The notes under the pieces are model-generated. The model was given only the letters and a program-made list of their open reading frames with translations, was not told the origin of the DNA and made no database searches. 64,000 nucleotides of DNA from Kiloniellaceae bacterium (GTDB taxonomy: Bacteria; Pseudomonadota; Alphaproteobacteria; Kiloniellales; J153), in the NCBI GenBank assembly GCA_021776095.1, contig JAJFGO010000098.1, forward strand, positions 23,094-87,093, read 5' to 3'. Within the stretch, counting starts at the first letter, position 1. Each line of letters opens with the position of its first letter. Below, piece after piece: positions 23,796-41,480 of the stretch. A program made the translations under genes and the position numbers.

Positions 23796-24667
23796 AGACG
23801 AGATACTCCTTTGGCGGCGACGAGCATATTTTCGTCGAAGTCGACGAAGAAATGTCGCTGGACGCCTTTTTCAAGAGCCTGTCCATAACCAACGCGGTGC
23901 GGGAGAGCCAGATCAAGGGCGTGACCGAAATCTGCCCCGCGAACGCCTCGTACCAGATCAAGTACGACCCCGACGTCATCGCGCCCGACGATCTGTTGGC
24001 GGAACTGAAAAGCCTGGAAGCCGCCGCCGAAAAGTCGGAATCGATCATCGATACGCGGATTATCGAGGTTCCGGTTTTCTACAACGACCCTTGGACCCAC
24101 GAAACCCTGATGCGGTTTCGCGAGCGTCACCAGGATCCGGATAGTACCGATCTCGAATACGCCGCGCGGATTAACAAATTCACGTCGGTCGATGAGTTCA
24201 TCGCGGCCCATTCCGGCGCGCCCTGGTTCGTGACCATGGTTGGTTTCGTTTCGGGCCTGCCGTTCATGTACCAAATGGCCGAACGCACCCACCAGATCGA
24301 GGTGCCGAAATACCTGCGCCCACGGACCGACACCCCCAAACTGACCGTTGGCTACGGCGGGTGTTTTGCGTGCATCTATTCCGTGCGCGGCGCGGGGGGC
24401 TATCAGATGTTCGGCATCACGCCCATGCCGATCTTCGATCCCAAGCAGGAGATTAGTTACCTGCGCGACTTCATGGTGTTTTTCCGGCCGGGTGACATCG
24501 TCAAGTTTAAGCCGATCGACCGGCCCGCCTACGATGCGGCCGTTGCCGATGTGGAGGCGGACAAGTTCGCTCCGCGGATCCGGGAATTCACGTTCTCCTT
24601 GAAAGAGCACCATAGCGATATCGACGGCTACAACAAAAAGATCGGGGAGGTTCTCCATGGGAATTAG
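23792..24667 (+). CDS. KipI/PxpB-like protein (carboxyltransferase subdomains C-D; formerly allophanate hydrolase subunit 1)
   Basis: 291 aa. ATGA overlap with the biotin carboxylase stop. Family pattern ...EIPVFYNDPW...GFVSGLPFMY...PRTDTPKLTVGYGG... Read by eye only. Confidence 0.85.
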   Translation: MKTRYSFGGDEHIFVEVDEEMSLDAFFKSLSITNAVRESQIKGVTEICPANASYQIKYDPDVIAPDDLLAELKSLEAAAEKSESIIDTRIIEVPVFYNDPWTHETLMRFRERHQDPDSTDLEYAARINKFTSVDEFIAAHSGAPWFVTMVGFVSGLPFMYQMAERTHQIEVPKYLRPRTDTPKLTVGYGGCFACIYSVRGAGGYQMFGITPMPIFDPKQEISYLRDFMVFFRPGDIVKFKPIDRPAYDAAVADVEADKFAPRIREFTFSLKEHHSDIDGYNKKIGEVLHGN

Positions 24668-25631
24668 GGTTTTATCGCCGGGCTTAGCGACCTCCGTTCA
24701 AGACCTGGGCCGCCCGGGCTATTATCACCTGGGGATTCCGATCTCGGGTGGCATGGACCGTTTTTCGCTAAGAGCCGCCAATCTCCTGGTCGGTAACGAC
24801 GAGGGCGCCGCGGTTCTCGAGGCCGTGTTCTTGGGACCGGAACTGGAGTTCACCCAGGACGCCACGGTCGCGGTTACCGGGGCCGATCTGCCGCCCAAGT
24901 TGGACGGCGAACCGCGCGAAACCTGGGCGGCCTTCGCGGTCAAGGCAGGGCAGGTGCTCAGCTTCGATTTCCTCAAGTCCGGCGCGCGAGCCTATATCGC
25001 CATATCGGGCGGGATCGATACGCCGCCAGCGCTCGGCAGCCGCTCGACCTACACCTTGGGTGCGCTGGGTGGTCATGAGGGCCGCAACCTCATGGCCGGC
25101 GACGCCTTGCCGCTCGGTCAAGCTTCCGGCGGTGCCGCCGAGGGGCGTAGCGTGCCCGCGAAGCTGCGCCGCGCGCCCGGCACGCCGGCGGAACTGCGCG
25201 TGTTGACCGGGCTCTATTGGCATCGGATCACAGAGGACTCGGGGCGCAACTTTTTCGAGGATACATGGAAGGTCGCGCCGGAGGCGGACCGCATCGGCTA
25301 TCGTTTTCGCGGCGGTCAACCCCTGTCGTTCGTCGACCGGGTGCCGCCCTTCGGGGCCGGCTCGGACCCCTCGAACATTGTCGATAGCTGCTATCCCTAT
25401 GGCTCGATTCAGGTGCCGGGGGGAACCGAACCGATCATCTTGCATCGCGATGCGGTGTCGGGCGGGGGCTATTTCATGCTCGGCACTGTGATCGCGGCGG
25501 ATATGGATCTGATTGGCCAGTTGCAGCCCAACACGCCGACCAAGTTCGTTTCCGTCGATATGGCGGCGGCGTTGTCGGCCCGGCACGATCGTGCCGGTTT
25601 GATGCAAGAGGTACGAAACGCGCTGAGTTGA
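24657..25631 (+). CDS. KipA/PxpC-like protein (carboxyltransferase subdomains A-B; formerly allophanate hydrolase subunit 2)
   Basis: 324 aa. N-terminal VLSPGLATSVQDLGRPGYYHLGIPISGGMD is typical of the family. Overlaps the upstream gene by 11 nt. Confidence 0.87.
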   Translation: MGIRVLSPGLATSVQDLGRPGYYHLGIPISGGMDRFSLRAANLLVGNDEGAAVLEAVFLGPELEFTQDATVAVTGADLPPKLDGEPRETWAAFAVKAGQVLSFDFLKSGARAYIAISGGIDTPPALGSRSTYTLGALGGHEGRNLMAGDALPLGQASGGAAEGRSVPAKLRRAPGTPAELRVLTGLYWHRITEDSGRNFFEDTWKVAPEADRIGYRFRGGQPLSFVDRVPPFGAGSDPSNIVDSCYPYGSIQVPGGTEPIILHRDAVSGGGYFMLGTVIAADMDLIGQLQPNTPTKFVSVDMAAALSARHDRAGLMQEVRNALS

Positions 25632-28253: not shown

Positions 28254-29771
28254 CTAACCTGTCTTGTGCGCCACCCGTTTGGCGAGAACCCGTCGGCGCG
28301 GCAAGTAGACAATTGCGTCGGTTCCCCGGCCAGGGGTGCTGTTGAGCTCGAATCGGCCGTCCAGCAGATTGGTCAGAGCCAACACCAATGGCAGCCCAAG
28401 CCCGGTCCCCGCGGTTTCGCGGCTGAACGCACTGGCGATCTGACCGAAGGGTTCTAGTGCCTTGCTCACATCTTCCGGCGCGATACCGATCCCCGTGTCG
28501 CTAACTGTCAGGCGGAGTTCGCCCTCCCCGGTTTTCTCCGCGATTATCTTGACCTTGCTGTTGGCGTCCGAGAATTTCACTGCATTGGAGAGCAAATTCA
28601 AAAGGATCTGTTTCATGGCCCGCTCGTCGGCCCAAAGATCCCCGAGGTCAGGAACGATGGTGCAATCGAACGTGATTCTGGCCGCTTTGGCTCGATCCCG
28701 AATCATGCGCAAACAACTCTTGACGATATCGGCGAGCTCCATCTGATCTTCGTGAAGCTCGAATTTGCCCGACTCGATCTTCGAGAGGTCGAGGATGTCG
28801 TTGATCAAGCTGAGCAGGTGGGTGCCGCTGTAATGGATATCGTAAGCGTAATCTGTGTACTCGTCATTGCCCATTGGCCCCCGGATCTCGTGGGTCATAA
28901 GCTCTGAAAAGCCGATGATCGCGTTGAGCGGCGTGCGCAACTCGTGACTAATGTTGGCTAGGAACTCGGATTTGGCGCGGCTAGCTAGTTCCGCCATTTC
29001 CTTGGCTCTGACCAACATGTCTTCCGACCGTTTTCTCTCGGTCACGTCGAGGCAGACCACAACGAGGCCGTCGTCGTCGGTTCGGTTATAGCGAATTTCG
29101 ATCGCACGCCCATCGTCCCGGATGTATTCTCGGTGCTTTTCTTCGGGCAGGCAGACAAGTTTCAGCGCCTTGACCGCCCGTTCGCTCAACGGGCCCATCT
29201 CGGCCTCGAACTGGCCCGAGAAACCGTCCAAATTCTCGAATCCGTCCTTGATTGCCAACATTTCCAGGAACCGGTCGTTCCATGCGATCAGCCGCATAGA
29301 CCTGTCGAACGCGGCAATTCCGGAGCCCGTGTTGTCGAGCGTCATTTGGAGCAGCATGGAGCGACTCATCGTCGCCTTGCGCGCCGCTGCGGCGCTGACC
29401 GCGTAACGAATGGATCGCTCCAGTAATGGGGCCGTCAGGCTGCTCTTTTCCAGGTAGTCGGCGGCGCCGGCCTCCATCGCGGCTAAATCGATCTCCCGGT
29501 CGCCGAGGCCGGTGAGCAGGATCATGGGTGTCGCACAGCCGGCGGCGACAGCTTCGCGCACCATCTCCACCCCTGTGGTTCCGCCAAAATAGTGGTCGAT
29601 CAAGATGACATCGTAGTACCCGGACTTGAGCCGCTCGAGGCCTGAGTCGTAATCCGGAACCCAATGCAAATTGTACTTGGTGCCCTCAATTTCGCCCAGC
29701 AGTTCGCGAGTCAGAAGATAATCGTCCTCGTCATCTTCGATCAGCAGAACTTGAAGGGTCTTCCCGGACAT
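28254..29771 (-). CDS. Hybrid response regulator-histidine kinase (REC, PAS, HisKA, HATPase_c)
   Basis: 505 aa. REC with the DD pair (IEDDEDD), phospho-acceptor D in VILIDHY and K in AADYLEK. H-box [19 protein letters not shown] and G-box GTGLGLPLV. Confidence 0.9.
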
Positions 29772-29783
29772 GGGCTTTCGTGC

Positions 29784-30248
29784 CTAGGCGACCGCCGCCC
29801 GCGCGGGCGGCAGTTCGACAATCTCGATCCAATAGGCGCCGAGCACTTGAACGACCTTGACAAGGCCCTCGAAGGTCACCGGCTTGGCGATGAACGAGCT
29901 GACCCCCAGCCCGTAGGTGCGTACGATATCTTCCTCGGCCTTCGATGTGGTAAGCACAATCACCGGAATTTGTTGAAACGCTGGGTTGGCCTTGATTTGT
30001 TTGAGCGCCTCGCGGCCGTCCATCTTCGGCATGTTGAGATCGAGCAGGATCATCCCGGGAAAAGGTGCGCGGCCCGCATCGGCGTATTCCCCTTCGCGGT
30101 TCAAATAGGCCAGTAACTGCTCGCCGTCTTCGACAAAGCGAAGATCGTTGGAAAGCCGACTTTCGTCGAAGGCGTCTTGAAGCAACATGCGGTCGTCGGC
30201 GTCGTCCTCGGCGACCAGGATCGTGATTGGTTTGGTATGCCTGCTCAT
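29784..30248 (-). CDS. Single-domain response regulator (Rcp1/CheY-like receiver)
   Basis: 154 aa starting at MSRHTKPITILVAEDDADD. Contains LLDLNMPKMDG, IPVIVLTTS and SFIAKP. The start is placed 2 nt after the upstream kinase stop; the ORF-track start at 30365 overlaps that kinase. Confidence 0.9.
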   Translation of the reverse strand: MSRHTKPITILVAEDDADDRMLLQDAFDESRLSNDLRFVEDGEQLLAYLNREGEYADAGRAPFPGMILLDLNMPKMDGREALKQIKANPAFQQIPVIVLTTSKAEEDIVRTYGLGVSSFIAKPVTFEGLVKVVQVLGAYWIEIVELPPARAAVA

Positions 30249-30250
30249 GT

Positions 30251-32434
30251 CTATGCTTCCTTCACCGTCTGATTCACTGGCAAGACGGCGGTGAACGTCG
30301 TACCTGCACCCAGTTCGCTCTTGGCATAAATTTCGCCGCCGTGCCGTTCGGCGATTTTTCGGCATGTTGCCAGACCGATGCCGGTGCCCTCATACTCAGC
30401 GCGGCCGTGCAAGCGCTGAAAGATGCTGAAGATCTGTTCTGCGTGTTTCATCTTGAAGCCGATCCCGTTATCCGAAACGTTGAGTTGGCAGACATCGCCC
30501 GGAAACGGCGACGCGAGCGATTGACGTCGCACACCCGATAAGACCTGGCTGTGGATCTTGACTATGGGTTGAGCATCTTTCTTGCGGAATTTGAGGGCAT
30601 TGCTGATAAGATTTTGCAACAGCTGGCGCATTTGCGTTTGGTCTGCATCGATCACGGGCAAATCACCGATTTCGACCGTGGCTCCAGAATCTTCGATCTG
30701 GATTTGTAGGTCGGAGACAACCTCCTCGGCGATCTGTTTAAGGGCGCAGGATTCGAAGGGCTGCGCCTTGCTGGTGACCCGGGAGTAGGACAAGAGGTCG
30801 TTGATAAGGTCACGCATGCGTCGTGTAGAGGATTGAATCCGGTTCAGGTAAAGCCCCGCCTCTTCGCCGAGTTCGTCGCTGCACTTGCGCTCCAGCCGGT
30901 CGCCGAAGGCTTCGATCTTGCGCAACGGTTCTTGCAGATCGTGGGACGCAATGGACGCGAAATCCTGCAATTCCTGATTGCTGCGCTCCAGAGCTGCGGC
31001 GCGGTCCTTCAACTCGGTAATGTCGGTGTACACCACAGCCGTGCCGCCATCGGTGGTGCGGTTCTCGTTAGTCAGGACCCAGCGGCCATTCGGCAGGCGC
31101 CATTCCGCTACGTGGTGGCGCGCGCGGTGCGACTCGATCTGACGGTTTAGTTCTTCGTCTGAGTCGGTGCCGTTGGCCTCGGCGCCGAGGCAACTTTCCA
31201 CTGTGGCCCTCGCGATGGTTTCGTAACTCACGCCGGGCTGGATCAAGTCTTTGAGTTCCGGGAAAAGGCCTCGGAAATGACTATTGCAGACCACCAGACG
31301 GTCGTCCTTGTCGTACAGCACCAGCCCTTGGGAAATGCTCTCCAGGATGACTTCTCGGGTTCGCGCCTCGGTCGCGGCGGCCTCGAGTTCCGCTTCCTTG
31401 ATCCGAGTGGCGTCCAGGATCACGCCGTCCCACATGACGGTGCCGTCGGGCTCCTTGTGCGGCCGGGCGATGGCGTGAGTGAATTTTCGCTGACCGTCCC
31501 GGCTGACAATGGTCGCCTCGACATCCCACATTTTCATTGCCCGGGTGGCCTCAAGCAGCCGGTCACGAAAGGTTTCGCGGTATTGTGCGCCGTGGCAGTC
31601 GAACAGGGCGTTGGGATCGGCTAGGATTTCTTGGGGAGCAACACCGAACATGTCCATCACGCCGTCGCTGATGTAGGTGTAGCGGATTTGACCGGCTGGC
31701 GTGACCATGCGCTGGTAAACGACGCCTGGGATGTTCGCGGCGAGGGATGCGAAGCGTTGGTCGGCGGAGCGCAATGCCTCGGCCCAGCCATCATGTTCTA
31801 TGGCGAAACGGGCGAGATCGGCGAGCGAGGCCAGGATACGTTTGTCGCCGAGCCCCGGCACGCGTGGCGTGCGGAAATAGACCGCCAGCACCCCCACGGG
31901 CGTGCCCATACGGCCCAGGATGGGATGGGCCCAACAGGACGTCAAACCATAGGATAAAGCAGTATTGGGGGACTGGGCCTCGGAAGGATGGCTCGAGGTC
32001 AGGGTTTCCGGCAAATAAATCGGCTTGCCCGTGGCCGCCGACAAGGTGCTGGGCGAGGACATTTCCACCGTGCCGGCCTGATCGACGGCCTGCAGATATC
32101 CCGGCGGAAAGTTCGGCGCGGCAGCATGGACCAGTTGTTTACTCTCGGGGTCCATCACCTGCACCGAACATATCGCTTGTTCAATAACTTGTTCGGCGAG
32201 ATTCGCAATGCGTGTGAGGGTTTCCTTGAGCGTCGCGCGCGTGGAAATCAGGCTGAGGACCTCGGTCTGCCCATGGAGCAGGGTGAGCAGGCGCTCCCGC
32301 TCCGCGGCGTCCATTTCCAAGGAAGAGCCCGTGGGCAGGGCCGCCGGCCCAACGCCATGTGGGGCCGATGCATCTCGTTGTGAATCCGCGCTCTGCTCTG
32401 TGGCGAGCACAGCCTCGTTTGGATTTGGCGTCAT
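30251..32434 (-). CDS. Cytoplasmic sensor histidine kinase: GAF, PAS (the shared module), second PAS, phytochrome-type HisKA, HATPase_c
   Basis: 727 aa. H-box FASIASHDLQEPLRKI and G-box GTGIGLATCRK. The PAS module at about 31380-31756 (RFASLAANIPGVVYQRMVTPAGQIRYTYISDG...WDGVILDATRIKEAELE) is homologous to both PAS units of the 25920 kinase. Confidence 0.9.
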   Translation of the reverse strand: MTPNPNEAVLATEQSADSQRDASAPHGVGPAALPTGSSLEMDAAERERLLTLLHGQTEVLSLISTRATLKETLTRIANLAEQVIEQAICSVQVMDPESKQLVHAAAPNFPPGYLQAVDQAGTVEMSSPSTLSAATGKPIYLPETLTSSHPSEAQSPNTALSYGLTSCWAHPILGRMGTPVGVLAVYFRTPRVPGLGDKRILASLADLARFAIEHDGWAEALRSADQRFASLAANIPGVVYQRMVTPAGQIRYTYISDGVMDMFGVAPQEILADPNALFDCHGAQYRETFRDRLLEATRAMKMWDVEATIVSRDGQRKFTHAIARPHKEPDGTVMWDGVILDATRIKEAELEAAATEARTREVILESISQGLVLYDKDDRLVVCNSHFRGLFPELKDLIQPGVSYETIARATVESCLGAEANGTDSDEELNRQIESHRARHHVAEWRLPNGRWVLTNENRTTDGGTAVVYTDITELKDRAAALERSNQELQDFASIASHDLQEPLRKIEAFGDRLERKCSDELGEEAGLYLNRIQSSTRRMRDLINDLLSYSRVTSKAQPFESCALKQIAEEVVSDLQIQIEDSGATVEIGDLPVIDADQTQMRQLLQNLISNALKFRKKDAQPIVKIHSQVLSGVRRQSLASPFPGDVCQLNVSDNGIGFKMKHAEQIFSIFQRLHGRAEYEGTGIGLATCRKIAERHGGEIYAKSELGAGTTFTAVLPVNQTVKEA

Positions 32435-32833
32435 GACACCTCAACCAATGCGTAACGCTAGTCCGTCGGGACAGACCGGGCCGTTGCAACTCAAACAGTT
32501 TGTGCAATTTCCGGTTTAAAAAGCATTAATGATTAGTGGTAAGTAAAAAAGTTTAGAGACTTTTAAAAACTGTTAGTTAATTTACTTCTATAATAATAGT
32601 TGCTTACCGATTTTTAACCGCTGCCTTAGACAATCCCTTCACCATCATTCGGCTTCTACCAGCATGGAGTGTGTATCCGGATGCCTTCGCAAGCAGCTGA
32701 AACGAATGCCCCGGCGTCCCAGGCCGGCGTAGAGGGAGTTCCTGTTGGCCCGGACTGCCGTCCGCTCCGCCAAGCGCGCCGGACGGGGCGGCTGGAACAA
32801 CTCGAGTCCCAAGTTAGCCAGTTGCTGGAGCGA

Positions 32834-33928
32834 ATGAACATTGCGGTCATTTACGGCGGGGATAAGTCTGTCGAGGGCGCAGTCATCAATCAGACCCAGA
32901 ACCCTCGCTCGTGGAAGAGTTACCAGGCCGTCGCCCAAGACATCGCGGATGCCCTAATACGGCTGGGCGCCAAAAGCGTGAGTCTGATGCCGGACGATAT
33001 GACGCTCGGCGATCGCTTGCGTCAGGACAATATTCATTTTGCCTGGCTGAACACCGGCGGCGTACAGGGTTACGATTCCATGTCCCATTGCGCCGCCATG
33101 CTCGAGATGATCGGCATTCCCTATGTTGGCCATCATCCGCTTACCGCCGGCATCTTGGACAACAAGCACACCTTCAAGCGCCAGTTGAACGCGCTGAGAA
33201 TTCCGACCGCCGACTTCATGACCTGGCATGAATTGCGCGACGAGCACGATTTCGTAAACGGTCGGCAGTTCAAGGAGGTCTTCGCGGACTACCCGGGCCC
33301 CTACGTTGTAAAGCCGGTCTGCGGTCGTGCCTCCCTGCACGTCAATATTGTAGATACGACTGCAGAATTGATGGATTGCGTGGCGGAGGTTTACCAGGCG
33401 ACCGAGAACCACGTTCTGATCGAAAAGTTTCTGCCGGGCAAGGAATACACCGTCGCTGTTTGCGGATCGATCATAGCCCAGGGAAAGAATCTGATTCAGT
33501 TGAAGGAGCCGCTCGTGTTCTCGCCGATCGAGCGTGTCCTTTTGCCGGACGAGAAGATCTTCACCTCCATGGACCTGCGCCCGATCACCAAGGACCGTTT
33601 GCGTCTGCTAGGATCGGACAGCGACCCGGATGTCTACGAAAAGTTAGTGGAGATCGCGCAAGAAGTTTTCACGCAAATGGATCTTGAGACGCTGATACGT
33701 CTAGACCTGAGGATGGATGTGGACGGCAGGTTCAACGTTCTCGAGGCCAATCCGAAACCGGACCTGAAGCGCCCCACTGGCGACAAGACCAGCATCGTGT
33801 GCGCGGGTTTGCAAGCCGTGGGCATGGACTATGACGATCTAATCTTTTCCCTGCTGGTCGATCAAATCGATTTTCTGTTTTGTCAACGTCGCGGGACGGT
33901 AACCACCCTCTCGGCCCTTTTGGATTGA
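32834..33928 (+). CDS. D-alanine--D-alanine ligase-like ATP-grasp enzyme
   Basis: Ddl-type N-domain (MNIAVIYGGDKS...), central DNKHTFKRQL and YVVKPVCGRASLHV, and C-terminal RLDLRMDVDGRFNVLEANPKP. The ORF is open from 32669, so up to 55 extra N-terminal residues are possible. Confidence 0.85.
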   Translation: MNIAVIYGGDKSVEGAVINQTQNPRSWKSYQAVAQDIADALIRLGAKSVSLMPDDMTLGDRLRQDNIHFAWLNTGGVQGYDSMSHCAAMLEMIGIPYVGHHPLTAGILDNKHTFKRQLNALRIPTADFMTWHELRDEHDFVNGRQFKEVFADYPGPYVVKPVCGRASLHVNIVDTTAELMDCVAEVYQATENHVLIEKFLPGKEYTVAVCGSIIAQGKNLIQLKEPLVFSPIERVLLPDEKIFTSMDLRPITKDRLRLLGSDSDPDVYEKLVEIAQEVFTQMDLETLIRLDLRMDVDGRFNVLEANPKPDLKRPTGDKTSIVCAGLQAVGMDYDDLIFSLLVDQIDFLFCQRRGTVTTLSALLD

Positions 33929-33945: not shown

Positions 33946-36360
33946 ATGTCAGGACCAGAAAGAATGCGTAAGGTTAGCAAAATCAGAAGGGCCATTTTCA
34001 ACGCGGTGACGATGACCTTCGTCGCCGGCTTGTCCCTGCTACTTTTGCTTTACGTTGGCCACGGCGAGGCCACGCGCACCTATCAGCAGTTCCAGGTCGA
34101 GAAGTTGGCTGCGCAAGGCCAAATCATTCAAAAGTCGATGGATACCTTCTTGCGTGGCGGCTATCCAGTTCGGCAGTTCGTCGGATTCACCACCATGGTC
34201 TCGCCGATCCTAGAGTCCGACCATACGATCGCCGCCATGACCGTGTTCGACCAGTCCGGTCGCTTGGTTTCCGCCGGCGGGGACGACTCGATACCTCTAT
34301 TGGCAAAATCGACCAGCATGAACGCCGACTCTTCGCTCATGGCAGACCTTCGCGAAGATGAACGGTATCTTCAGGTCGTTCTGCCGCTGCGCAACCGTTT
34401 CGAGCAGGTTGGCAGTCTTGCTATCAGCATGCCAAAGGCGGTCATCGTCGAGCGTATCGAGGCGAGTTTTCTGCCGCTGCTCATCGTCGTTGCCGCCTCG
34501 GCGGTCGGGTTCGGTCTTTTCGTCGGCATTGGGGCCCCCTTGCTCACGGGCAAGCGGCGGCGTTGGCTGCAGTATACCTACGCGCTGACCTTCCTGGGCG
34601 CCTCCGCCTTGGTCATTGCGACCCTCATCTCGCTGTATTCGGAAGGGGCGCAGATCAAGACCAAGGCCTTGGCCGATTCTCTTGGCCAACGCTTGACCAG
34701 CATTGTGCAGTTCGGCCTCAACATCACCGAGATTCAAGGCTTGGACCAAGTCCTCGGCGATTATCAACGTCTCAATCCGGACATCAGCGCCGCCGGTTTG
34801 ACCGTCGACCGGATTGTCACCATACATACCGACGAAGCGGCCGTCGGCAAGCCGTGGACAAGCGACGGGGGCAATTACGAATACATCGTCAATCTGACCC
34901 GTCCCGGCGGCCGAGACATCCGGATTGCCGTGGCCATGCCGGCGGACATCGTGTTTCGCCAGGTCTTGCGCAGCGTCAAGAATTTCGCGGCCTTGTTCGT
35001 GGCGTCCGCTTTCGTGGCGGGCGTCTTCCTTCAACTCGCTGGATCGGTGCGGCGCGTGCGCGCGGACGACGATTCTGCCGCTGACCCCTTGGCGCCGACA
35101 CCGGACGCTGAGGAAGCCGATTTGAAGCTAGTCAAACCGGTCTTCTTCATTGCTGTCGTGGCGGAACACCTGACATATGCGTTTCTGCCGCAGTTCATGT
35201 ATAGGGTCACCGAAAGTTCGGGTCTACCCGAAGGGTCGGCTTCGGCCTTGTTCGTAACCTATTATCTGTTCTTTGCGTTGAGCCTGGTGCCGGCAGGTCA
35301 TTTCGCTCAGCACTTTAGCCCACGCCCACTCATGTACGTCGGTATGTCCTTTGCCGCGTTGGGGCTTGGGCTTCTGTCCGTTTATCCTGACTTCTACGTG
35401 GTGCTGGGCGCCCGCGCCTTATCGGGCATTGGCCAAGGCATGCTCTTCATTGGGGTTCAGTCCTACATTTTGGCGACGGCTGCAGAAAACCGAAGAACTC
35501 AAGGTGCATCGATCATCGTTTTTGGTTTCCAAGGCGGCATGATCTCCGGCATGGCGATCGGCTCGCTATTGGTGACGCAGATGGGCCCGGAGGGGGTCTT
35601 TGCGTTGGCCGGCGGGATTGCCGTTTTCATGGCGCTCTATACTCTTGTCGTAGTGCCGAACGTCTCGACTCGGGCCTTAGTAGAGTCCCAGGGCGGTGCG
35701 TCCTTGCGCGTGCTGTTTAGGGATCTGATTCGGGCTATGCGAAGCTTCGAGTTTCTCCGCACCATGTTTCTGATCGGTGTGCCAGCCAAGGCTGTAATGA
35801 CCGGTGTGATCATATTTGCCCTGCCAGTTCTCATGACCAAGGCGCAATACGTTCAGGAGGACATTGGCCAGGTTCTTATGGTCTACGCCGGCGCCGTAGT
35901 GCTGGCGAGCGGCTATGCCTCACGCTCCGTCGACCGGACGGGACGAACCGATCAGGCGTTGTTCTTTGGGTCGATCGTCAGCGGCGCCGGTCTGGTCCTA
36001 ATCGGGGTGACGGGATGGGCGCCGCTCGCTAATCAGGCCAGCAACACCAACCTTCTGACGGTGTTGCTGATCGCAGGCGTCGCCATTGTTGGCATCGCCC
36101 ATGGTTTTATCAACGCGCCCGTGGTGACCCATGTGGCGAATTCCGAGCTTTCCGCAATAACCGGCGAATCTGCGGCGACCGCAGCCTACCGGTTCCTGGA
36201 GCGCCTGGGCCACGTCGCCGGGCCAATCATCGTCGGTCAGCTTTTTCTCTTCGGCGGGCAGGATCCGATGGTGATTGCCTGGATCGGGGGAGGGGTCGCC
36301 GTCCTGGGCGTCCTGTTCCTGATAAAGCCCACACCCACGCAGGTCAGTTACGAGCGTTAG
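33946..36360 (+). CDS. MFS-type permease with an N-terminal extension of about 400 aa containing two TM-bracketed extracytoplasmic sensor-like (Cache/PDC-like) domains
   Basis: The topology read from hydrophobic segments is TM, about 135 aa, TM-TM, about 130 aa, TM, then an acidic linker. An MFS-like core of about 400 aa follows (LTYAFLPQF..., ALSGIGQGMLFIGVQSYI...). Start at 33946 or 33964; the ORF-track start at 33880 overlaps the ATP-grasp gene. Confidence 0.78.
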   Translation: MSGPERMRKVSKIRRAIFNAVTMTFVAGLSLLLLLYVGHGEATRTYQQFQVEKLAAQGQIIQKSMDTFLRGGYPVRQFVGFTTMVSPILESDHTIAAMTVFDQSGRLVSAGGDDSIPLLAKSTSMNADSSLMADLREDERYLQVVLPLRNRFEQVGSLAISMPKAVIVERIEASFLPLLIVVAASAVGFGLFVGIGAPLLTGKRRRWLQYTYALTFLGASALVIATLISLYSEGAQIKTKALADSLGQRLTSIVQFGLNITEIQGLDQVLGDYQRLNPDISAAGLTVDRIVTIHTDEAAVGKPWTSDGGNYEYIVNLTRPGGRDIRIAVAMPADIVFRQVLRSVKNFAALFVASAFVAGVFLQLAGSVRRVRADDDSAADPLAPTPDAEEADLKLVKPVFFIAVVAEHLTYAFLPQFMYRVTESSGLPEGSASALFVTYYLFFALSLVPAGHFAQHFSPRPLMYVGMSFAALGLGLLSVYPDFYVVLGARALSGIGQGMLFIGVQSYILATAAENRRTQGASIIVFGFQGGMISGMAIGSLLVTQMGPEGVFALAGGIAVFMALYTLVVVPNVSTRALVESQGGASLRVLFRDLIRAMRSFEFLRTMFLIGVPAKAVMTGVIIFALPVLMTKAQYVQEDIGQVLMVYAGAVVLASGYASRSVDRTGRTDQALFFGSIVSGAGLVLIGVTGWAPLANQASNTNLLTVLLIAGVAIVGIAHGFINAPVVTHVANSELSAITGESAATAAYRFLERLGHVAGPIIVGQLFLFGGQDPMVIAWIGGGVAVLGVLFLIKPTPTQVSYER

Positions 36361-36369
36361 GAGTTTCCG

Positions 36370-37578
36370 ATGATCAGAATATTTTCGATACGGCGTTTTG
36401 CAGGGTTGATAGCGGCAGCGGCGGCCTTTGTGTTTGTGTCCCTAGCGGTGCCGAATTCAGTTCTTGCCAAGGCCGATTTTTCCAGCTGGTTCCGCTATGG
36501 CGAAGACGTTGAGAAGGCTTGGCGGGTCGAAGCGGTGGACGGCGATCCCAATCAGGTGCGGATCAGCACGCAAAAAAGTAATCCGTCCGGACCCAAGCGC
36601 AAGATCATGGTGGTATATCCGCGCCCGTCGTCTGCCTACGATGTGGCGATCACGAAAATTCTCGCTATCTTCGCCGAAAAAGACATTAACGCGGACATTA
36701 CCGTGGTCAATTTCCTGAAGGAAGACAAGCGCGGTAAGGCCCTGATCAAGCGCGCCGAGAAAGAAGGCTACGAGTTGATGTTCTCCATGGGCTCGGAATC
36801 GACCGATTGGCTCTTTCGGAATTATGGTGGCGGCAAGGTGCCTGTGGTCTCCGTCTGCTCCAAGGATCCGGTCATGCTAGGCCAGGCTAGTGCCTACGAT
36901 CAAGGCACTGGAACGAACTTCGCTTTCACCTCTTTGAATATGCCTGTCGACGTACAAATGGCCTATGTGGTTGATTTCATGCCGCAGGTTAAAAACTTCG
37001 CCATCCTGGTGGACAGCAAGAACGTCAGCGCGGTCGAGACCCAGGCGAAACCCATCGCCGAATACGCCCGGCAGCGCGGCATCCAGGTTCACGAGCTGGC
37101 GGTGAATAACCCGAAGAAGGCCAAGGACGAGTTAAGCGAGTTGGTCAAGTCGGCGGTCGCTACCATGCGCAAGAGCGACCCGACCTTGAGCAACAGCCTG
37201 TTCTGGATCACAGGCAGCACTGCGGTCTTTCGGGAGATCGCCACCATCAACGCCCATTCGGACCGCGTTCCGGTGCTCAGCGTGGTGCCTGAAGTGGTCA
37301 AGGCCGGCGACAATAGTTCCGTCATGTCCATCGGAATCAGCTTCGAAAGCAATGCCCATCTTGCGGCGATCTATGGTGCGGACGTGCTCGCGGGCCGCAA
37401 TCCGGGCGAAATCCCGGTCGGCATCGTGTCCCCGCCCGATATCGCCATTAATTTCCGCAAAGCGCGGGAGATCGGGCTGGAGATACCCTTCAAGTTTCTC
37501 GAGAGCGCGACCTACGTCTATGGCTATGACGGCCAGGTCGTGCGCAACTCGAGGCCGTCGGTGCAATCCGTCAACTAA
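36370..37578 (+). CDS. Periplasmic ABC_sub_bind (PF04392-like, BMP-related) substrate-binding protein, with no cognate ABC permease or ATPase nearby
   Basis: 402 aa. Signal peptide ending VLAKA and AGGAG ahead of the ATG. Family-like blocks KIMVVYPRPSSAYD, VPVVSVCSKDP, NFAILVDSKN and PPDIAINFRKAREIGLEIP. The family assignment rests on recollection of the pattern only. Confidence 0.75.
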   Translation: MIRIFSIRRFAGLIAAAAAFVFVSLAVPNSVLAKADFSSWFRYGEDVEKAWRVEAVDGDPNQVRISTQKSNPSGPKRKIMVVYPRPSSAYDVAITKILAIFAEKDINADITVVNFLKEDKRGKALIKRAEKEGYELMFSMGSESTDWLFRNYGGGKVPVVSVCSKDPVMLGQASAYDQGTGTNFAFTSLNMPVDVQMAYVVDFMPQVKNFAILVDSKNVSAVETQAKPIAEYARQRGIQVHELAVNNPKKAKDELSELVKSAVATMRKSDPTLSNSLFWITGSTAVFREIATINAHSDRVPVLSVVPEVVKAGDNSSVMSIGISFESNAHLAAIYGADVLAGRNPGEIPVGIVSPPDIAINFRKAREIGLEIPFKFLESATYVYGYDGQVVRNSRPSVQSVN

Positions 37579-37872
37579 GGCACCTTAGGATAGCCATCGG
37601 GTCTCGATCTTCAAGAATCGGGTTCCGGAACTTTGAGCCGGCCCTTCGGGAAAATCCCGCGGGGCCGGTTCTCGTTGTGCTCAGATTTCATTTGACTGCA
37701 ACAAACCAGTAACGCTCCAATCCTCAGTTCGCGAAGGGACGATGTTTCCTGACCTGCCGGGTCCCGGCGGGCTTGTGAAATGCGTCTTGGCCCTGCTAAA
37801 TCAGGTTGGCTTTCCGGCGTCCCGAAGGGCGGCGCAGGACGCGTTGAAATGGGTGTGGGATTGGGAAACGAA

Positions 37873-38736
37873 ATGATGCGGTATGAAGCTCCGGAATCCA
37901 CTAAAGCGGCGGTCAAGCTGCTAGCCGGATCCAGGGACCGGGCGCGGATCCTGGCGGGCGGGACCGACTTGCTGGTCCAAATGCGCTCCGGCATGCCCGA
38001 GCCGGCCCTGGTGATCGACATCAAGCACATCGCTGCCATGGGCGCGATTAAGCGGGAAGCGGGCGGTTTCCGGATCGGTGCGGCGGTGCCCAGCGCCGAA
38101 TTGGGAGAACACGCCGGGCTGGTCAAGGCTTGGCCCGGCGTGGTCGAGGCGGCGGGCTTGATCGGTTCGACCCAAATTCAGGGCCGGGCGACTATCGTGG
38201 GTAACCTGTGCAATGGCTCGCCGGCGGCCGATAGCGTGCCGGCCATGATGGTCGCCGGGGCGCGGGCCCGCATTGCCGGACCCGGCAGGCGACGGGACTT
38301 GCCAGTTGAGAAGGTGGTGGTTGGGCCGGGCAAAACCGCGCTCAAGAGGGGCGAACTGATCGAATCGATCTTTCTGCCCAAGCGCCCGGCGCGCTCCGGC
38401 GACGCCTATCTGCGTTTCATCCCGCGCACCGAGATGGATATTGCGGCAGCCAGTGCCGGTGTTTTCCTGACCCTCGATCGCAAGGGCATTTGTACCGATG
38501 CCCGGGTCGCCATCGGCGCGGTCGGGCCGCGGGCTATTCTGGTCAAACCGGCGGCCAAGGCCCTGATCGGCACGCCGCTTGACGAGGCGGCTCTGACCCA
38601 ACTTGCGGCCGCCTGTTCCGCCGCCGCGCGGCCGATCGACGACAAACGCGGCACCAAGGAATTCAGAACCCACGTGGTCGGCGTCCTGGCGCGCCGCGCC
38701 GCCGTGATCGCGCTCAAGCGGGCAAAAGGTGAATGA
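37873..38736 (+). CDS. Molybdenum hydroxylase FAD-binding medium subunit (CoxM/XdhB-like)
   Basis: MMRYEAPESTKAAVKLL...ILAGGTDLLVQMRSG is typical of FAD_binding_5, with a CO-dehydrogenase flavoprotein C-domain. The start is moved from 37780 to 37873. Confidence 0.88.
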   Translation: MMRYEAPESTKAAVKLLAGSRDRARILAGGTDLLVQMRSGMPEPALVIDIKHIAAMGAIKREAGGFRIGAAVPSAELGEHAGLVKAWPGVVEAAGLIGSTQIQGRATIVGNLCNGSPAADSVPAMMVAGARARIAGPGRRRDLPVEKVVVGPGKTALKRGELIESIFLPKRPARSGDAYLRFIPRTEMDIAAASAGVFLTLDRKGICTDARVAIGAVGPRAILVKPAAKALIGTPLDEAALTQLAAACSAAARPIDDKRGTKEFRTHVVGVLARRAAVIALKRAKGE

Positions 38737-39212
38737 TGTCTCAGATTCCTGTAACAACGACGATCAACGGCGACGCGACCGAATTCCTGTGCGAGGCCGA
38801 CGAAACTTTGCTCGACGTACTGCGCGACCGGCTTGAGTTGAGCGGCACCAAGGAAGGTTGCGGCACCGGCGATTGCGGCGCCTGCTCGGTTATGCTCGAC
38901 GGCCGGCTGGTTTGCTCGTGTCTGGTCTTGGGCGCGGAGGCGGAGGGCCGGGAGGTCGAAACCATCGAGGGTATGGCCGAGGGCGATACCCTCCATCCCC
39001 TGCAAAAGAAGTTTCTGGAACACGCCGCCTTGCAATGCGGCGTCTGCACCCCGGGTTTTCTGATCGCTGCGAAGGCCCTGCTGGAAACCAACCTCGATCC
39101 GACTGAAACCGAGGTCCGCTATTGGCTGGCCGGCAATCTGTGCCGCTGCACCGGCTATGACAAGATCGTGCGCGCCGTGCTGGACACGGCCGCCGAGATG
39201 AGGAGCGCGTAA
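38733..39212 (+). CDS. Molybdenum hydroxylase [2Fe-2S] small subunit (CoxS-like)
   Basis: 159 aa. Cluster motifs CGTGDCGACSV and CGVCTPG...CRCTGY. ATGA overlap with the upstream gene. Confidence 0.93.
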   Translation: MMSQIPVTTTINGDATEFLCEADETLLDVLRDRLELSGTKEGCGTGDCGACSVMLDGRLVCSCLVLGAEAEGREVETIEGMAEGDTLHPLQKKFLEHAALQCGVCTPGFLIAAKALLETNLDPTETEVRYWLAGNLCRCTGYDKIVRAVLDTAAEMRSA

Positions 39213-39215
39213 GCT

Positions 39216-41480
39216 ATGCCTGACCAAGGCCAGATCGCCACCAAACGCAAATTCAAGCTCGTCGGCACCCGGCCGGTACGGCCCGACGGGGTTGACAAGG
39301 TCACGGGCCGGGCGCGTTTCGGTGCCGACATGACCGCGCCGGGCATGCTGCACGCCTTGATTCTGCGCTCGCCTCACGCCCACGCCCGGATCAAGTCGAT
39401 CGATACCTCAAGGGCCGAGCGGTTGCCTGGGGTCAAGGCGGTGGTGACCCGCGACGATTTCGCCCTGCCCGAGCGCCGCGACCTGGTCGATATTTGCTAC
39501 AACGTCATGGCGCGGGAAAAGGCGCTCTACGACGGTCACGCGGTCGCCGCGGTGGCGGCGGTCTCGAAGCCGGTCGCGCGCGAGGCGTTGCGCCGGATCA
39601 AGGTTGTATACGAGATCCTGCCACACGTGACCGACGTTGACGAAGCCATGAAGCCCAATGCGCCGATCCTGCATAAAGACATGCGCACCAAGGGGATCGA
39701 CCCGAAACCGAGCAAGGCGTCCAACGTGGCGCGGCAGTGGGAATTCGGCCATGGCGACGTAGACAGGGGCTTCACCGAGGCCGACATCGTCGTGGAGCGC
39801 ACCTTCAAAACCGCGGCCACGCACCAAGGCTACATCGAGCCGCACGCCTGCCTGGCTAGCGTCGGGTCGGACGGGCAGGGTGATCTGTGGTGCTGCACCC
39901 AAGGTCACTACATGGTGCGCAATGCCTGTGCCGGCCTGCTGGGCATGAAGGTTTCTCAGTTGCGGGTGACCGCCTCGGAAATCGGCGGCGGCTTTGGCGG
40001 CAAAACCACGGTGTTTATTGAGCCGGTCGCCCTGGCGTTGTCCCGCAAGGCCGGGCGGCCGGTCAAGCTGGTCATGTCGCGCAACGAAGTGTTCCGCGCC
40101 ACCGGCCCGACCGCCAGCTCCAGCACTGATGTCAAGATCGGCGTCAAAAAGAACGGCCAGATCACGGCGGCCAAGGCGGTGCTGCGCTATCAAGGCGGTG
40201 CCTTTGCCGGCTCGCCGGTTCAGTTTGGCGCCATGACCGCCTTTGCCTGCTATGATTTGAAGAACGTGCAGACCATCGGCTACGACGTGGTCACAAACCG
40301 GCCGAAGCAGGCCGCCTACCGGGCGCCCGGCGCGCCCTTGGCGGCCTTCGCCATCGAAAGCGTGATCGACGAGCTGGCCACTAAGATCCGCATGGACCCG
40401 CTGGAATTCCGGCTGCTCAACGCGGCGCGCGAGGGTACCAAGTCATCTTACGGGCCGACCTTCGGCCCGATCGGCCTGGAGGCGACGCTCGAGGAATCTA
40501 AGGGCCATCCCCATCATCTGGCGCCGCTTGGGCCCAACCAGGGCCGGGGCGTGGCCTGCGGCTTCTGGTTCAATTTCGGCGGCAATACTTGCGTGTCGCT
40601 CAACATCGGCGAGGACGGCACGGTTTGTCTCTCGGTCGGCAATCCGGACATCGGCGGGTCGCGCGCCTCCATGTGCCTAATGGCGGCTGAGGAACTGGGC
40701 GTTCCCTACGAGCGGGTGCGCACCATCATCGCGGATACGGCGGCGCTCGGTTACAACGAAGTAACCGACGGCAGCCGGGTCACCTTCGCGGTCGGTATGG
40801 CGACGATCAAGGCGGCCCAGGCCGCCAAGGTCAAGTTATGCGAGCGCGCCGCCAAGATCTGGGATATCTCGCCGGAGGCGGTGGTTTGGGAAGACGGCCA
40901 CGCCAGGCCGGCCGGTGCCAACGCCGGTACCTTCAAGCCCATGTCCTTGGCCGATATCGCGGCCGTGGCCGGGTCGACCGGTGGGCCGATCGCCGGCCAT
41001 AGCGAGGCGAACGCCGACGGCGCCGGGGTCAGTTTTGCGACCCACATGGTCGATGTGGAGGTCGATCCGGAAACCGGCCGGGTGACGGTGCTGCGCTACA
41101 CGGTGTTCCAGGACGCCGGTAAGGCGATCCATCCCAGCTATGTGGAGGGGCAGTTCCAGGGCGGGGCGGCCCAAGGCGTCGGCTGGGCGCTTAACGAAGA
41201 ATACATCTATGGCGAGGACGGCCGCTTGCAGAACGCCGGATTCCTAGATTACCGGATTCCAGTTGCATCGGACCTGCCCTTTATCGATACGGTGATCCTC
41301 GAGATCCCGAACCCTGGCCATCCCTATGGCGTGCGCGGGGTCGGTGAGACCTCGATCGTGCCGCCCCTGGCGGCCATCGCGAACGCGGTTTCGGCGGCTG
41401 CCGGTGTGCGGCACACCCAACTACCCATGTCGCCGCCACGGATTCTGAAATCCATCATGGAGAAGCGCGACGGGGTCTAA
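39216..41480 (+). CDS. Xanthine dehydrogenase/aldehyde oxidase-family molybdopterin-binding large subunit (CoxL-like; not a form I CO dehydrogenase)
   Basis: 754 aa. Motifs GGGFGGK, AAYRAPGAP and GVGETSIVP. The active-site loop lacks the VAYRCSFR signature of genuine CODH. Confidence 0.92.
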   Translation: MPDQGQIATKRKFKLVGTRPVRPDGVDKVTGRARFGADMTAPGMLHALILRSPHAHARIKSIDTSRAERLPGVKAVVTRDDFALPERRDLVDICYNVMAREKALYDGHAVAAVAAVSKPVAREALRRIKVVYEILPHVTDVDEAMKPNAPILHKDMRTKGIDPKPSKASNVARQWEFGHGDVDRGFTEADIVVERTFKTAATHQGYIEPHACLASVGSDGQGDLWCCTQGHYMVRNACAGLLGMKVSQLRVTASEIGGGFGGKTTVFIEPVALALSRKAGRPVKLVMSRNEVFRATGPTASSSTDVKIGVKKNGQITAAKAVLRYQGGAFAGSPVQFGAMTAFACYDLKNVQTIGYDVVTNRPKQAAYRAPGAPLAAFAIESVIDELATKIRMDPLEFRLLNAAREGTKSSYGPTFGPIGLEATLEESKGHPHHLAPLGPNQGRGVACGFWFNFGGNTCVSLNIGEDGTVCLSVGNPDIGGSRASMCLMAAEELGVPYERVRTIIADTAALGYNEVTDGSRVTFAVGMATIKAAQAAKVKLCERAAKIWDISPEAVVWEDGHARPAGANAGTFKPMSLADIAAVAGSTGGPIAGHSEANADGAGVSFATHMVDVEVDPETGRVTVLRYTVFQDAGKAIHPSYVEGQFQGGAAQGVGWALNEEYIYGEDGRLQNAGFLDYRIPVASDLPFIDTVILEIPNPGHPYGVRGVGETSIVPPLAAIANAVSAAAGVRHTQLPMSPPRILKSIMEKRDGV

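Follow-up and report, generated by a model that had tools for sequence, protein, structure and literature searches.

A membrane protein gene of the major facilitator superfamily (MFS) lies in the 64,000-nucleotide stretch of Kiloniellaceae DNA analysed here (the window), between a gene for an ATP-grasp ligase and one for an orphan solute-binding protein (SBP), with three signalling genes on the opposite strand (Table 1). The ATG at 33946 is the start of the 804-amino-acid reading frame in the ORF list. A TTG at 33880 was rejected as an alternative start, because it would make the gene overlap with the preceding one and is unsupported by the N-termini of homologs.

Table 1. Positions in the window of the MFS gene, its segments and the neighbouring genes
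Feature	Position	Strand	Details and evidence
REC-PAS_7-HisKA-HATPase hybrid kinase, third signalling gene	28254..29771	-	Pfam; conserved in L001-L003
Single-domain response regulator, REC only	29784..30248	-	Pfam Response_reg 9e-21
Soluble sensor kinase, GAF-PAS_3-PAS_7-HisKA-HATPase	30251..32434	-	Divergent; Pfam
Ddl-like ATP-grasp ligase	32669..33928	+	Upstream; ~414-419 aa, exact start uncertain; Pfam Dala_Dala_lig_C 8e-17
MFS permease with N-module, whole gene	33946..36360	+	804 aa, 16 TM; ORF list, full-length homologs, AF2
TM-A (aa 17-37)	33994..34056	+	Hydropathy; AF2 continuous helix 4-69
Ectodomain 1 (aa 38-170)	34057..34455	+	133 aa; AF2, Foldseek, conservation
TM-B (aa 173-195), KRRRW cytoplasmic turn, TM-C (aa 208-230)	34462..34635	+	Hydropathy; AF2 helices 164-196, 202-255
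Ectodomain 2 (aa 231-343)	34636..34974	+	113 aa; AF2, hhalign, conserved columns
TM-D (aa 345-367) and acidic cytoplasmic linker (aa 368-394)	34978..35127	+	Hydropathy, AF2, conservation
12-TM MFS core (aa 395-795)	35128..36330	+	Pfam, Foldseek, invariant columns
Orphan PF04392 (ABC_sub_bind) SBP	36370..37578	+	Downstream; Pfam 2.4e-13, N-terminal signal sequence

Hydropathy and two confident AlphaFold2 (AF2) models (pLDDT 83-87; full-length model, pLDDT 83 and pTM 0.80) place the N-terminus of the MFS protein in the cytoplasm, followed by TM-A, ectodomain 1, the TM-B/TM-C hairpin, ectodomain 2, TM-D, the acidic linker and the MFS core. The distribution of K+R, by count, obeys the positive-inside rule: six K+R precede TM-A in the cytoplasmic aa 1-16, and the KRRRW turn has four K+R and no D+E. 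TM-D is the most conserved segment of the protein (conservation 0.90), and the acidic linker is poorly conserved and modelled with low confidence. The original prediction, made from the DNA sequence alone, had proposed this order, and each peptide that it quoted occurs in that order in the translation; the four TM helices ahead of a 12-TM core were recovered by hydropathy and by both models. Its length for ectodomain 1 (about 135 aa) was close to what we find, whereas ectodomain 2 is shorter than the approximately 130 aa that had been claimed.

Predicted fold of the two ectodomains

Cache/PDC domains are regarded as the main type of extracellular sensor module in signalling proteins. In the AF2 models ectodomain 1 (pLDDT mostly >90) is built from a stalk helix, a short helix and five β-strands, with the topology H-H-E-E-(loop)-E-E-E, that is, a long N-terminal helix and then a PAS-like α/β core. 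Ectodomain 2 shares this topology, with a stalk helix, a short helix and four β-strands. Conservation is 0.62-0.72 in ectodomain 1, falling to 0.37 in a variable loop (aa 113-133), and the β2-β3 connector, the usual site of the ligand pocket in Cache domains, is its least conserved and lowest-pLDDT part. Ectodomain 2 is conserved at 0.68-0.80 and has invariant or near-invariant columns at H294, T295, G301, W304, Y311 and Y313. The conserved faces of the two ectodomains lie around D92, D102, R136, E153, H294, W304, Y311 and Y313. Each ectodomain fills the entire extracytoplasmic stretch between two TM helices, which is a Cache/PDC trait.

When the predicted structure of the N-module (both ectodomains with TM-A to TM-D) was used as a Foldseek query against the PDB, about 45 of the top 50 matches were Cache/PDC sensor ectodomains, including those of WalK, PctA/B/C, McpU and KinD; the remainder were the DosP PAS domain and a biosensor. 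The best single-domain structural matches were the sCache-like domains of WalK/YycG (PDB 5is1 and 7dud; TMt 0.55-0.60, probability 1.0), which likewise are small TM-bracketed PDC folds with no known small-molecule ligand. WalK differs in being a kinase with one ectodomain, and at 9-12% identity there is no sequence similarity. For both periplasmic loops a PDC/Cache-like fold is a high-confidence prediction: the N-terminal 400 aa, for which Cache/PDC-like ectodomains had been proposed, gave confident AF2 models and Foldseek matches that are almost all PDC/Cache sensor ectodomains. Sequence profiles did not place the N-module in a Cache family. The window protein has no Pfam Cache match in this region at E≤0.1, and its first 395 aa returned nothing significant from Pfam, NCBIfam or a PDB profile search, the last being empty. 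Sub-threshold matches to dCache_1 occur in four of 26 family members (best E 0.0018), and to ArlS_N in five of the 26. The two ectodomain units align in register with each other in hhalign (E=5e-4, probability 31%), and the N-module may have arisen long ago by tandem duplication of a TM-PDC-TM unit.

Cache domains have been found exclusively in proteins with a signal-transduction output (PMC4822843). On the window protein the only further domain is MFS_1, and signalling domains are on separate neighbour proteins (Pfam). The fusion of sensor ectodomains to a transporter had been called unusual, which agrees with the published distribution, and full-text literature searches returned no description of this MFS architecture or of its gene cassette.

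MFS core and conservation of the architecture

The window protein is a member of the MFS: Pfam MFS_1 (PF07690) matches aa 400-731 with 114.5 bits against a cut-off of 33.4 (E=6.5e-33), within a core that has the expected length of about 400 aa. The core helices span aa 386-792 in the AF2 model, in two six-helix halves separated by a central cytoplasmic loop (571-600). Foldseek aligned the core to MdfA, NorA and VMAT2 with TMt 0.78-0.83 at 15-18% identity, and a PDB sequence search with the core alone gave no match at 1e-3. Invariant columns are dense in the core and include E407, H408, R490, D663 and R749. We scored MFS motifs by inspection, taking motif A as G-x3-D-R-x-G-R and motif B as R-x3-G in TM4. 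Motif B is present (R490-ALS-G494), as is a motif-A-like S-V-D663-R-T-G666-R in loop 8-9, where D663 is invariant and R660 and G666 are near-invariant; the loop 2-3 copy of motif A is degenerate, with Q455 replacing the D. Motif C (G-x8-G-x3-G-P-x2-G-G) is absent from TM5 (aa 523-541, IIVFGFQGGMISGMAIGSLLV), which has no G-P. The DHA1 proteins MdfA, NorA and VMAT2 resemble the core in their 12-TM structure and in an acidic TM1 residue (the invariant E407 here), but they have neither a four-TM, two-ectodomain N-module nor an SBP partner. Classification as a DHA1 drug:H+ antiporter was ruled out by the missing motif C, the proximity being structural only.

The best 120 homologs mostly have at least 95% query coverage, at 53-85% identity, and two cover 67-69%. 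A profile of the N-module only detected at least 524 representatives of 50% identity clusters at E≤1e-3. The threshold E≤1e-30 was passed by 229 of these, and almost every one of the 150 representatives listed is approximately 800 aa long. Family members are annotated merely as 'MFS transporter'. The combination of N-module and MFS core is confirmed as real and conserved, well beyond chance. That it could be an artefact, through a sequencing frameshift joining two genes or sensor-like loops arising by chance, is extremely improbable. All that speaks for this is that the first 395 aa gave no sequence match in Pfam, NCBIfam or the PDB, and against it stand hundreds of homologs of approximately 800 aa from independent assemblies, the position of the linker within one conserved reading frame, confident AF2 models and consistent Foldseek matches. 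The full-length homologs rule out the frameshift that the original prediction had named as a possible source of the fusion.

A conserved cassette with an orphan SBP and soluble signalling proteins

In Alphaproteobacteria the MFS gene is part of a conserved operon, with a Ddl-like ATP-grasp gene before it and an orphan PF04392 SBP gene after it. Culturable bacteria that carry these genes include Pelagibius sp. Alg239-R121, Desertibaculum subflavum, Bosea and Devosia. The ATP-grasp gene ends 17 nt before the MFS start and adjoins the MFS gene in 74 of 77 loci, and the two genes are translationally coupled. The SBP gene, preceded by AGGAG, starts 9 nt past the MFS stop and adjoins it in 73 of 74 loci. 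One paralogous copy (L034) has no adjacent ligase and retains the SBP and histidine kinase (HK). A scan of the operon for promoters and terminators gave counts not above shuffled expectation. Identification of the upstream neighbour as a D-alanine--D-alanine ligase was rejected: its best score against the NCBIfam Ddl models is 94.6 bits (cut-off 243), and although the ATP/Mg and catalytic residues are kept, the omega-loop K215-Y216 is replaced (EAKYLSDE aligns with ERVLLPDE). Judged by these residues, it is a Ddl-like ATP-grasp enzyme of other specificity.

The SBP has PDB relatives 6hni, 3lkv and 3lft, and solved structures of the PF04392 family have aromatic amino acids bound (PMC10443332). 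ABC-like ORFs were found in eight of 80 loci and were adjacent to the cassette in none. A dedicated SBP in an operon that encodes no ABC ATPase or permease is what characterizes an SBP-dependent secondary transporter; in place of the TRAP or TTT subunits (DctQ/DctM or TctA/TctB, with a DctP/TctC SBP) the operon encodes MFS_1 and PF04392 proteins. In relatives P0238 and P0253 the PF04392 SBP is fused to the MFS protein, and a substrate-binding domain is tethered outside the MFS in these two and in P0211 and P0233; the fused SBP domains keep a periplasmic topology. The domain fused in P0211 is PF12974 and belongs to an HK-sensor lineage. The P0211 locus was not recovered in a metagenome scan, and an alignment-based repeat of that scan gave only histidine-kinase/PAS proteins with the shared SBP-like domain. 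Other family members have an FHA insert, a cytoplasmic extension at the C-terminus or a doubled module.

The GAF-PAS_3-PAS_7 kinase has no TM segment (hydropathy maximum 1.00), and a gene related to this double-PAS kinase is present and adjacent in 53 of 56 loci. Here the double-PAS partner is a histidine kinase, and Hyphomicrobiales have a GGDEF-EAL protein in its place; between the kinase and the GGDEF-EAL partner of Bosea, the PAS-PAS part shares 49% identity. The REC-only gene is kept in L001-L003 and in 28 of the 56 loci. Pfam identified no DNA-binding response regulator in the cassette, only the REC-only protein and the REC-HK, and no conserved catabolic genes lie beside it in L001-L003. 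All signalling proteins of the cassette are soluble and its only membrane protein is the MFS protein; the tight gene linkage fits transport-coupled signalling. The transceptor proposed in the original prediction gains from the conserved architecture, the predicted PDC-like fold and these tightly linked signalling genes, but the evidence points to an SBP partner that was absent from that proposal.

Possible coupling of solute capture, transport and signalling

The constant company of a ligase, an orphan SBP and a soluble signalling protein suggests an undescribed coupling of solute capture or transport to signalling. Our preferred reading, advanced tentatively as something close to an even call, is that the protein is an SBP-assisted MFS transporter, with the SBP docked on the PDC-like domains, and provides an 'import-then-sense' cassette with its membrane input. 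The periplasmic SBP would capture a small, probably amino-acid-like ligand and dock on the PDC-like platform, a feature that other MFS proteins lack, and would then feed or gate the MFS core, leading to uptake of the ligand. The cytoplasmic ATP-grasp ligase would modify the imported ligand, and the PAS-PAS protein would read the substrate, the product or the transporter's state, the output of the PAS-PAS protein being a phosphorelay here and c-di-GMP turnover in Hyphomicrobiales. The PDC-like domains may be an SBP docking platform and not direct ligand sensors, because an orphan SBP is encoded downstream and, in some relatives, forms one protein with the MFS. The analogy is with LuxP-LuxQ (and HptA-HptS), where an SBP gene also lies beside that of a membrane protein with two PAS/PDC-like periplasmic modules; in LuxQ the binding partner of these modules is the SBP and not the ligand (PMC8050422). 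The LuxQ modules are in one continuous periplasmic segment with a histidine-kinase output, whereas in the MFS protein each module has its own TM pair, the MFS is the covalent 'output', and the kinase is separate and soluble.

Other known systems share parts of this arrangement. The Lsr AI-2 system combines SBP capture, import, ATP-dependent modification and a cytoplasmic receptor, which is the logic proposed here, but it uses an ABC transporter, the kinase LsrK and the repressor LsrR, with no homology. TRAP and TTT systems pair an SBP, encoded in the operon, with an ATPase-less secondary transporter; their membrane subunits are DctQM and TctAB instead of MFS, their SBPs are DctP/TctC and not PF04392, and they are without PDC-like domains, ligase or PAS partners. 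The covalent external domains of P0238, P0253, P0211 and P0233 recall the SBD-fused ABC importers of the OpuA and GlnPQ type, which are ATP-driven, whereas the translocator here is an MFS protein. A transporter fold serves as signalling input in UhpC/UhpB, in sensor Amt proteins such as Sd-Amt1 (PMC11152129) and in SLC5-type CbrA. UhpC is without ectodomains and UhpB is membrane-bound, and Sd-Amt1 and CbrA each carry transporter fold and signalling enzyme on one polypeptide, whereas here sensor-like domains are on the transporter and the enzyme is separate and soluble.

The MFS protein could instead be a co-sensor or 'trigger transporter', shifted by the SBP on its PDC-like domains so that it contacts the PAS kinase or GGDEF-EAL protein, with transport vestigial or incidental. 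This would follow the logic of UhpC-UhpB and would suit the restriction of Cache/PDC domains elsewhere to signalling proteins (PMC4822843), the MFS as sole membrane protein among soluble signalling proteins, the conserved PAS-PAS partner with its swapped output, the variants with an FHA insert or C-terminal cytoplasmic extension, the HK-sensor lineage of the fused PF12974 domain and the lack of conserved catabolic genes nearby (L001-L003). We consider it unlikely, since the core is conserved like that of a working transporter, with motif B, the motif-A-like loop and numerous invariant polar residues in its TM helices, and since the ATP-grasp ligase would be left without a role.

That ligase is given one if the cassette serves biosynthesis and export, the ligase making a dipeptide-like compound that a DHA1-like MFS exports and that the SBP and PDC-like domains sense, in an autoinducer-like loop through the PAS system. 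The L-amino-acid ligase BacD with its MFS exporter BacE is a precedent, the closest solved MFS structures (MdfA, NorA, VMAT2) are exporters or antiporters, and the ligase and MFS genes are coupled and adjacent. To our knowledge, exporters need no SBP, yet the SBP is a near-constant neighbour and even fused; together with the missing antiporter motif C and the L034 copy, which keeps SBP and HK with no adjacent ligase, this makes export quite unlikely. Ordinary nutrient uptake, in which the MFS imports with SBP help and the adjacent two-component genes only regulate expression, would agree with the aromatic amino acids bound by the SBP family (PMC10443332) and with a divergent gene arrangement as in regulator/target pairs. 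It is very unlikely, given a cassette with only REC-only and REC-HK proteins and no DNA-binding response regulator, a GGDEF-EAL enzyme instead of a transcription regulator in Hyphomicrobiales and no catabolic genes conserved alongside (L001-L003), and it leaves the ATP-grasp and sensor-like ectodomains unexplained.

To return to SBP-assisted import, the stronger claim, that this is the first MFS-based SBP-dependent secondary transporter, with a Cache/PDC-like docking or gating platform and, in addition, a transceptor input with a ligase-made intracellular signal, is doubtful. If true, it would add a third kind to the SBP-dependent secondary transporters, joining TRAP and TTT. SBPs are generally regarded as partners of ABC, TRAP and TTT transporters and a few receptors only; a family widespread in Alphaproteobacteria (at least 524 clusters) would break both this generalization and that of Cache domains only in signalling proteins. 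Domain censuses limited to signalling proteins miss sensor folds on transporters. The cassette, with its four to six genes, is a tractable model for transport-coupled signalling, in which extracellular input appears to reach soluble kinases or c-di-GMP enzymes via a transporter.

Membrane layout and distribution of the MFS protein

The MFS protein is encoded by an uninterrupted plus-strand ORF that ends at 36360 and starts at either a TTG (33880) or an ATG (33946); the ATG gives a protein of 804 aa, agrees with the N-termini of homologs and lies 17 nt from the stop codon of the upstream gene. Kyte-Doolittle hydropathy and two AlphaFold2 models agree on the layout, in which four TM segments and two ectodomains (together the N-module) precede the MFS core, and charge counts fit the positive-inside rule. 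The peptides quoted in the original prediction are all found in the translation in the order given, and the layout it described is accurate except for the length of the second domain, which is nearer 113 aa than ~130 aa.

Table. Genes of the cassette (window nucleotides) and features of the MFS protein (aa).
Feature	Coordinates	Strand	Description	Basis
REC-PAS-HisKA-HATPase hybrid kinase	28254-29771	-		
REC-only response regulator	29784-30248	-		
GAF-PAS_3-PAS_7-HisKA-HATPase kinase	30251-32434	-		
Ddl-like ATP-grasp ligase	32669-33928	+	divergent from GAF-PAS_3-PAS_7 kinase	
MFS protein	33946-36360	+		
PF04392 solute-binding protein (SBP)	36370-37578	+		
MFS protein N-terminus			cytoplasmic, K/R-rich	
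TM-A	aa 17-37			hydropathy + AlphaFold2
Ectodomain 1	aa 38-170			hydropathy + AlphaFold2
TM-B	aa 173-195			hydropathy + AlphaFold2
KRRRW turn			cytoplasmic, between TM-B and TM-C	hydropathy + AlphaFold2
TM-C	aa 208-230			hydropathy + AlphaFold2
Ectodomain 2	aa 231-343			hydropathy + AlphaFold2
TM-D	aa 345-367			hydropathy + AlphaFold2
Linker	aa 368-394		acidic; low model confidence	
MFS core	aa 395-795		12 helices	hydropathy + AlphaFold2

The complete protein, used as query, gave 651 matches. Among the best 120 of these, at 53-85% identity, coverage of the query is mostly at least 95% (67-69% in two); their lengths are nearly always 780-820 aa, and homologs named by their source are called only "MFS transporter". 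An N-module profile (A3, aa 1-392), used in an exhaustive HMMER search over representatives of 50%-identity clusters, detected 524 cluster representatives at E<=1e-3, including 229 at E<=1e-30; with very few exceptions the best 150 have a length of ~780-840 aa and begin with the N-module. The family is widespread in Alphaproteobacteria: a scan of species-representative genomes identified 80 loci, essentially all from this class (Kiloniellales, Rhodospirillales, Geminicoccales, Hyphomicrobiales, Defluviicoccus, Devosia, Bosea, Pelagibius and Desertibaculum), the closest relative being from a Kiloniellaceae MAG. No genetic model organism is found among the carriers. A sequencing frameshift that fused two separate genes, which the original prediction had raised against itself, is therefore excluded by the many ~800-aa homologs across genomes. 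Loci L009, L011 and L025, with 53-71% identity to the alphaproteobacterial cassette, come from MAGs whose labels are Flavobacteriales, Verrucomicrobiia and Anaerolineae; mis-binning of the contigs is a more probable cause than a real spread to other phyla. The Kiloniellales MAG PL23b_bin.6 holds two paralogous MFS-SBP pairs in one bin (L021 and L034), and the L034 copy has no adjacent ATP-grasp gene but retains an upstream kinase.

Predicted fold of the ectodomains and the MFS core

The first 395 residues have no match to any Pfam, NCBIfam or PDB sequence model, and family members give sub-threshold Pfam signals for dCache_1 (4/26, best E 0.0018) and ArlS_N (5/26). AlphaFold2 models of the full-length protein (mean pLDDT 83, pTM 0.80) and of the N-module (pLDDT 87.3, pTM 0.81), which were built on an alignment of family members only (51 sequences, >=53% identity), both predict that each loop consists of a long helix out of the membrane, a short helix, an antiparallel sheet (five strands in ectodomain 1, four in ectodomain 2) and a helix back into the membrane. 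When the N-module model was compared with the PDB by Foldseek, ~45 of the top 50 matches were extracytoplasmic PDC/Cache sensor domains. They include WalK (E=2.3e-8; WalK/YycG ectodomain crystal structures 5is1, TMt 0.55, and 7dud, TMt 0.60) and the dCache ligand-binding domains of McpU, PctA/B/C, CtaA, Mlp24, TlpC and TlpQ; the few others are the DosP PAS domain and a lactate-binding biosensor. The PDC/Cache-like ectodomains of the original prediction are thus supported at the level of predicted structure, but not as members of a Cache family by sequence. According to Upadhyay et al. (PMC4822843), all Cache domains identified belong to proteins that have a signalling output domain, and only such proteins went into the Cache models; this would explain why the N-module is missed by Pfam.

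Compared profile to profile, the two TM-PDC-TM units, the halves of the N-module, align in register over 116 columns (E=5e-4, probability 31%), a weak sequence-level hint that the module may have arisen by ancient duplication. The ectodomains are as conserved as the core (mean column identity 0.62-0.80 and 0.69-0.74, respectively). Conservation is highest in TM-D (0.90) and, within ectodomain 2, in the stalk helix (0.80). It is lowest (0.37) at aa 113-133, which connect beta2 and beta3 in ectodomain 1 and where model confidence is also lowest.

Pfam MFS_1 matches aa 400-731 (E=6.5e-33), and in a Foldseek search with the full-length model the core is nearest to the DHA1-type proteins MdfA, NorA and VMAT2 (TMt 0.78-0.83, 15-18% identity), with POT, DgoT and sialin next. 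Inspection of the sequence shows that motif B (R490-x3-G494) and a motif-A-like D663-R-x-G-R in loop 8-9 are conserved, the motif A copy in loop 2-3 is degenerate, and antiporter motif C is absent from the core. Invariant polar residues inside the TMs include E407, H408, Q497, Q505, Q529, K615, H719, R749 and E752. Judged by these features, the core looks like a working transporter, not a decayed scaffold.

A conserved gene cassette

The six-gene set is kept, with unrelated flanks, at homologous loci L001-L003, which come from a Denitrobaculum genome, a Rhodospirillales chromosome and Pelagibius. Counting only loci with sufficient flank among the 80, ATP-grasp is directly upstream of the MFS gene in 74/77, the SBP directly downstream in 73/74, and a related kinase present in the flanks of 53/56 (40 divergent upstream, 10 co-directional downstream, 3 elsewhere). 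In Bosea (L083:10652-13417) and a Rhizobiaceae genome (L073:12818-15505) the partner at this position is not a histidine kinase but a PAS_3-PAS_7-GGDEF-EAL protein. Between its double-PAS region and aa 225-475 of the window kinase, identity is 49% (E=6e-79). Because the similarity stops at the onset of the output domains, the conserved companion is, from sequence comparison, a cytoplasmic input module of two PAS domains whose output can be exchanged. The signalling proteins and the ligase have no TM segments, and the SBP has a signal sequence. ABC ATPase-like ORFs occur at 8/80 loci and are adjacent in none; the SBP is therefore an orphan with regard to ABC systems. Its closest solved relatives are 6hni, 3lkv and 3lft, and the ligands of solved PF04392 proteins are L-Trp, L-Tyr or L-Phe (PMC10443332). 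The ATP-grasp protein falls far under all Ddl cut-offs (best NCBIfam score 94.6 vs 243), and aligned with DdlB it retains the ATP/Mg and catalytic residues, with the omega-loop K215-Y216 replaced; it probably still works as a carboxylate-amine ligase, on a different substrate.

Around the cassette, the plus strand encodes a CT_A_B carboxyltransferase-domain protein (24657-25631, E=7.6e-89; 5-oxoprolinase or allophanate-hydrolase subunit type) and, just outside the cassette, a second soluble PAS-PAS-HisKA-HATPase kinase (25920-28175, 751 aa) that is not among the six genes conserved in L001-L003. Directly 3' of the SBP gene are three genes (37780-41480, +) for the FAD-binding, 2Fe-2S and MoCo subunits of a CoxMSL/xanthine-dehydrogenase-type molybdenum hydroxylase, at which GC content climbs from ~0.57 to ~0.65; their adjacency to the cassette is not conserved elsewhere.

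Fused relatives and a proposed mechanism

In P0238 and P0253 (1157 aa) a PF04392 SBP is joined to the MFS C-terminus via an additional TM, and in P0211 and P0233 the N-module follows a signal peptide, a PF12974 SBP-like domain and one extra TM. Either way the SBP domain remains in the periplasm and N-module orientation is unchanged. The fused PF12974 domain has its nearest relatives (~40% identity) in hybrid histidine kinases and PAS proteins, where they act as periplasmic inputs. At L085:7908-11333, L089:7878-12014 and L088:7887-9737, SBP-like domains of PF12974 (Phosphonate-bd) form the N-terminal periplasmic part of such proteins, the last locus being followed by a gene for a dCache-PAS-GGDEF protein. 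The N-module occurs twice in tandem ahead of the core in P0121 and P0123 (1170-1185 aa; four ectodomains, eight extra TMs), and is therefore a duplicable unit. In P0188 (940 aa) the cytoplasmic loop that joins the MFS halves contains a phosphothreonine-binding FHA domain (aa 615-692), a hint that this lineage may have a connection with Ser/Thr kinase signalling. Geminicoccaceae homologs (L043:8992-12066, L044-L048, L051, L052, L055) and P0141 have a soluble C-terminal extension of ~220 aa with no Pfam match; those of L043 and P0141 have only a short motif in common (…W L x Q x x G W L A L…, E=2.5e-5).

We propose as the likeliest reading, at somewhat short of an even chance for the whole series of steps, that a small amino-acid-like ligand would be captured by the SBP, which would dock on the PDC-like platform and feed or gate uptake via the MFS core; the ligand would then be modified by the ATP-grasp ligase, and the PAS-PAS protein would read substrate, product or transporter state and drive a phosphorelay or c-di-GMP turnover. 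The Lsr AI-2 system has a logic similar to this capture-import-modify-sense order. A model for the docking is provided by two SBPs, LuxP and HptA, whose docking sites are the dCache-like domains in LuxQ and HptS (PMC8050422).

It is unlikely that the protein is a pure co-sensor, the MFS part passing its conformation on to the kinase. Biosynthesis and export of the ligase product, with SBP-mediated sensing, is rather improbable; it would suit the DHA1-like core and has ATP-grasp/MFS precedents. Import is favoured by the constancy of the SBP and by its fusions, since all transporters known to be served by SBPs are importers. Simple uptake of a nutrient, with the neighbouring kinases as its regulators, is given a slighter chance still, and an artefact next to none.

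The SBP-using transporter families given by Matilla et al. are ABC, TRAP and TTT, and MFS is not listed (PMC8050422); a full-text literature search of incomplete coverage found no description of the MFS plus PDC-like architecture or of the cassette. We rate the system as known kinds (MFS transporter, PDC/Cache ectodomain, SBP partnership) joined in an undescribed combination. As the data show, this membrane protein combines a transporter core with a periplasmic platform of sensor-like build, and it is inseparable from three companions: an orphan SBP, a ligase and a PAS signalling protein that is soluble.
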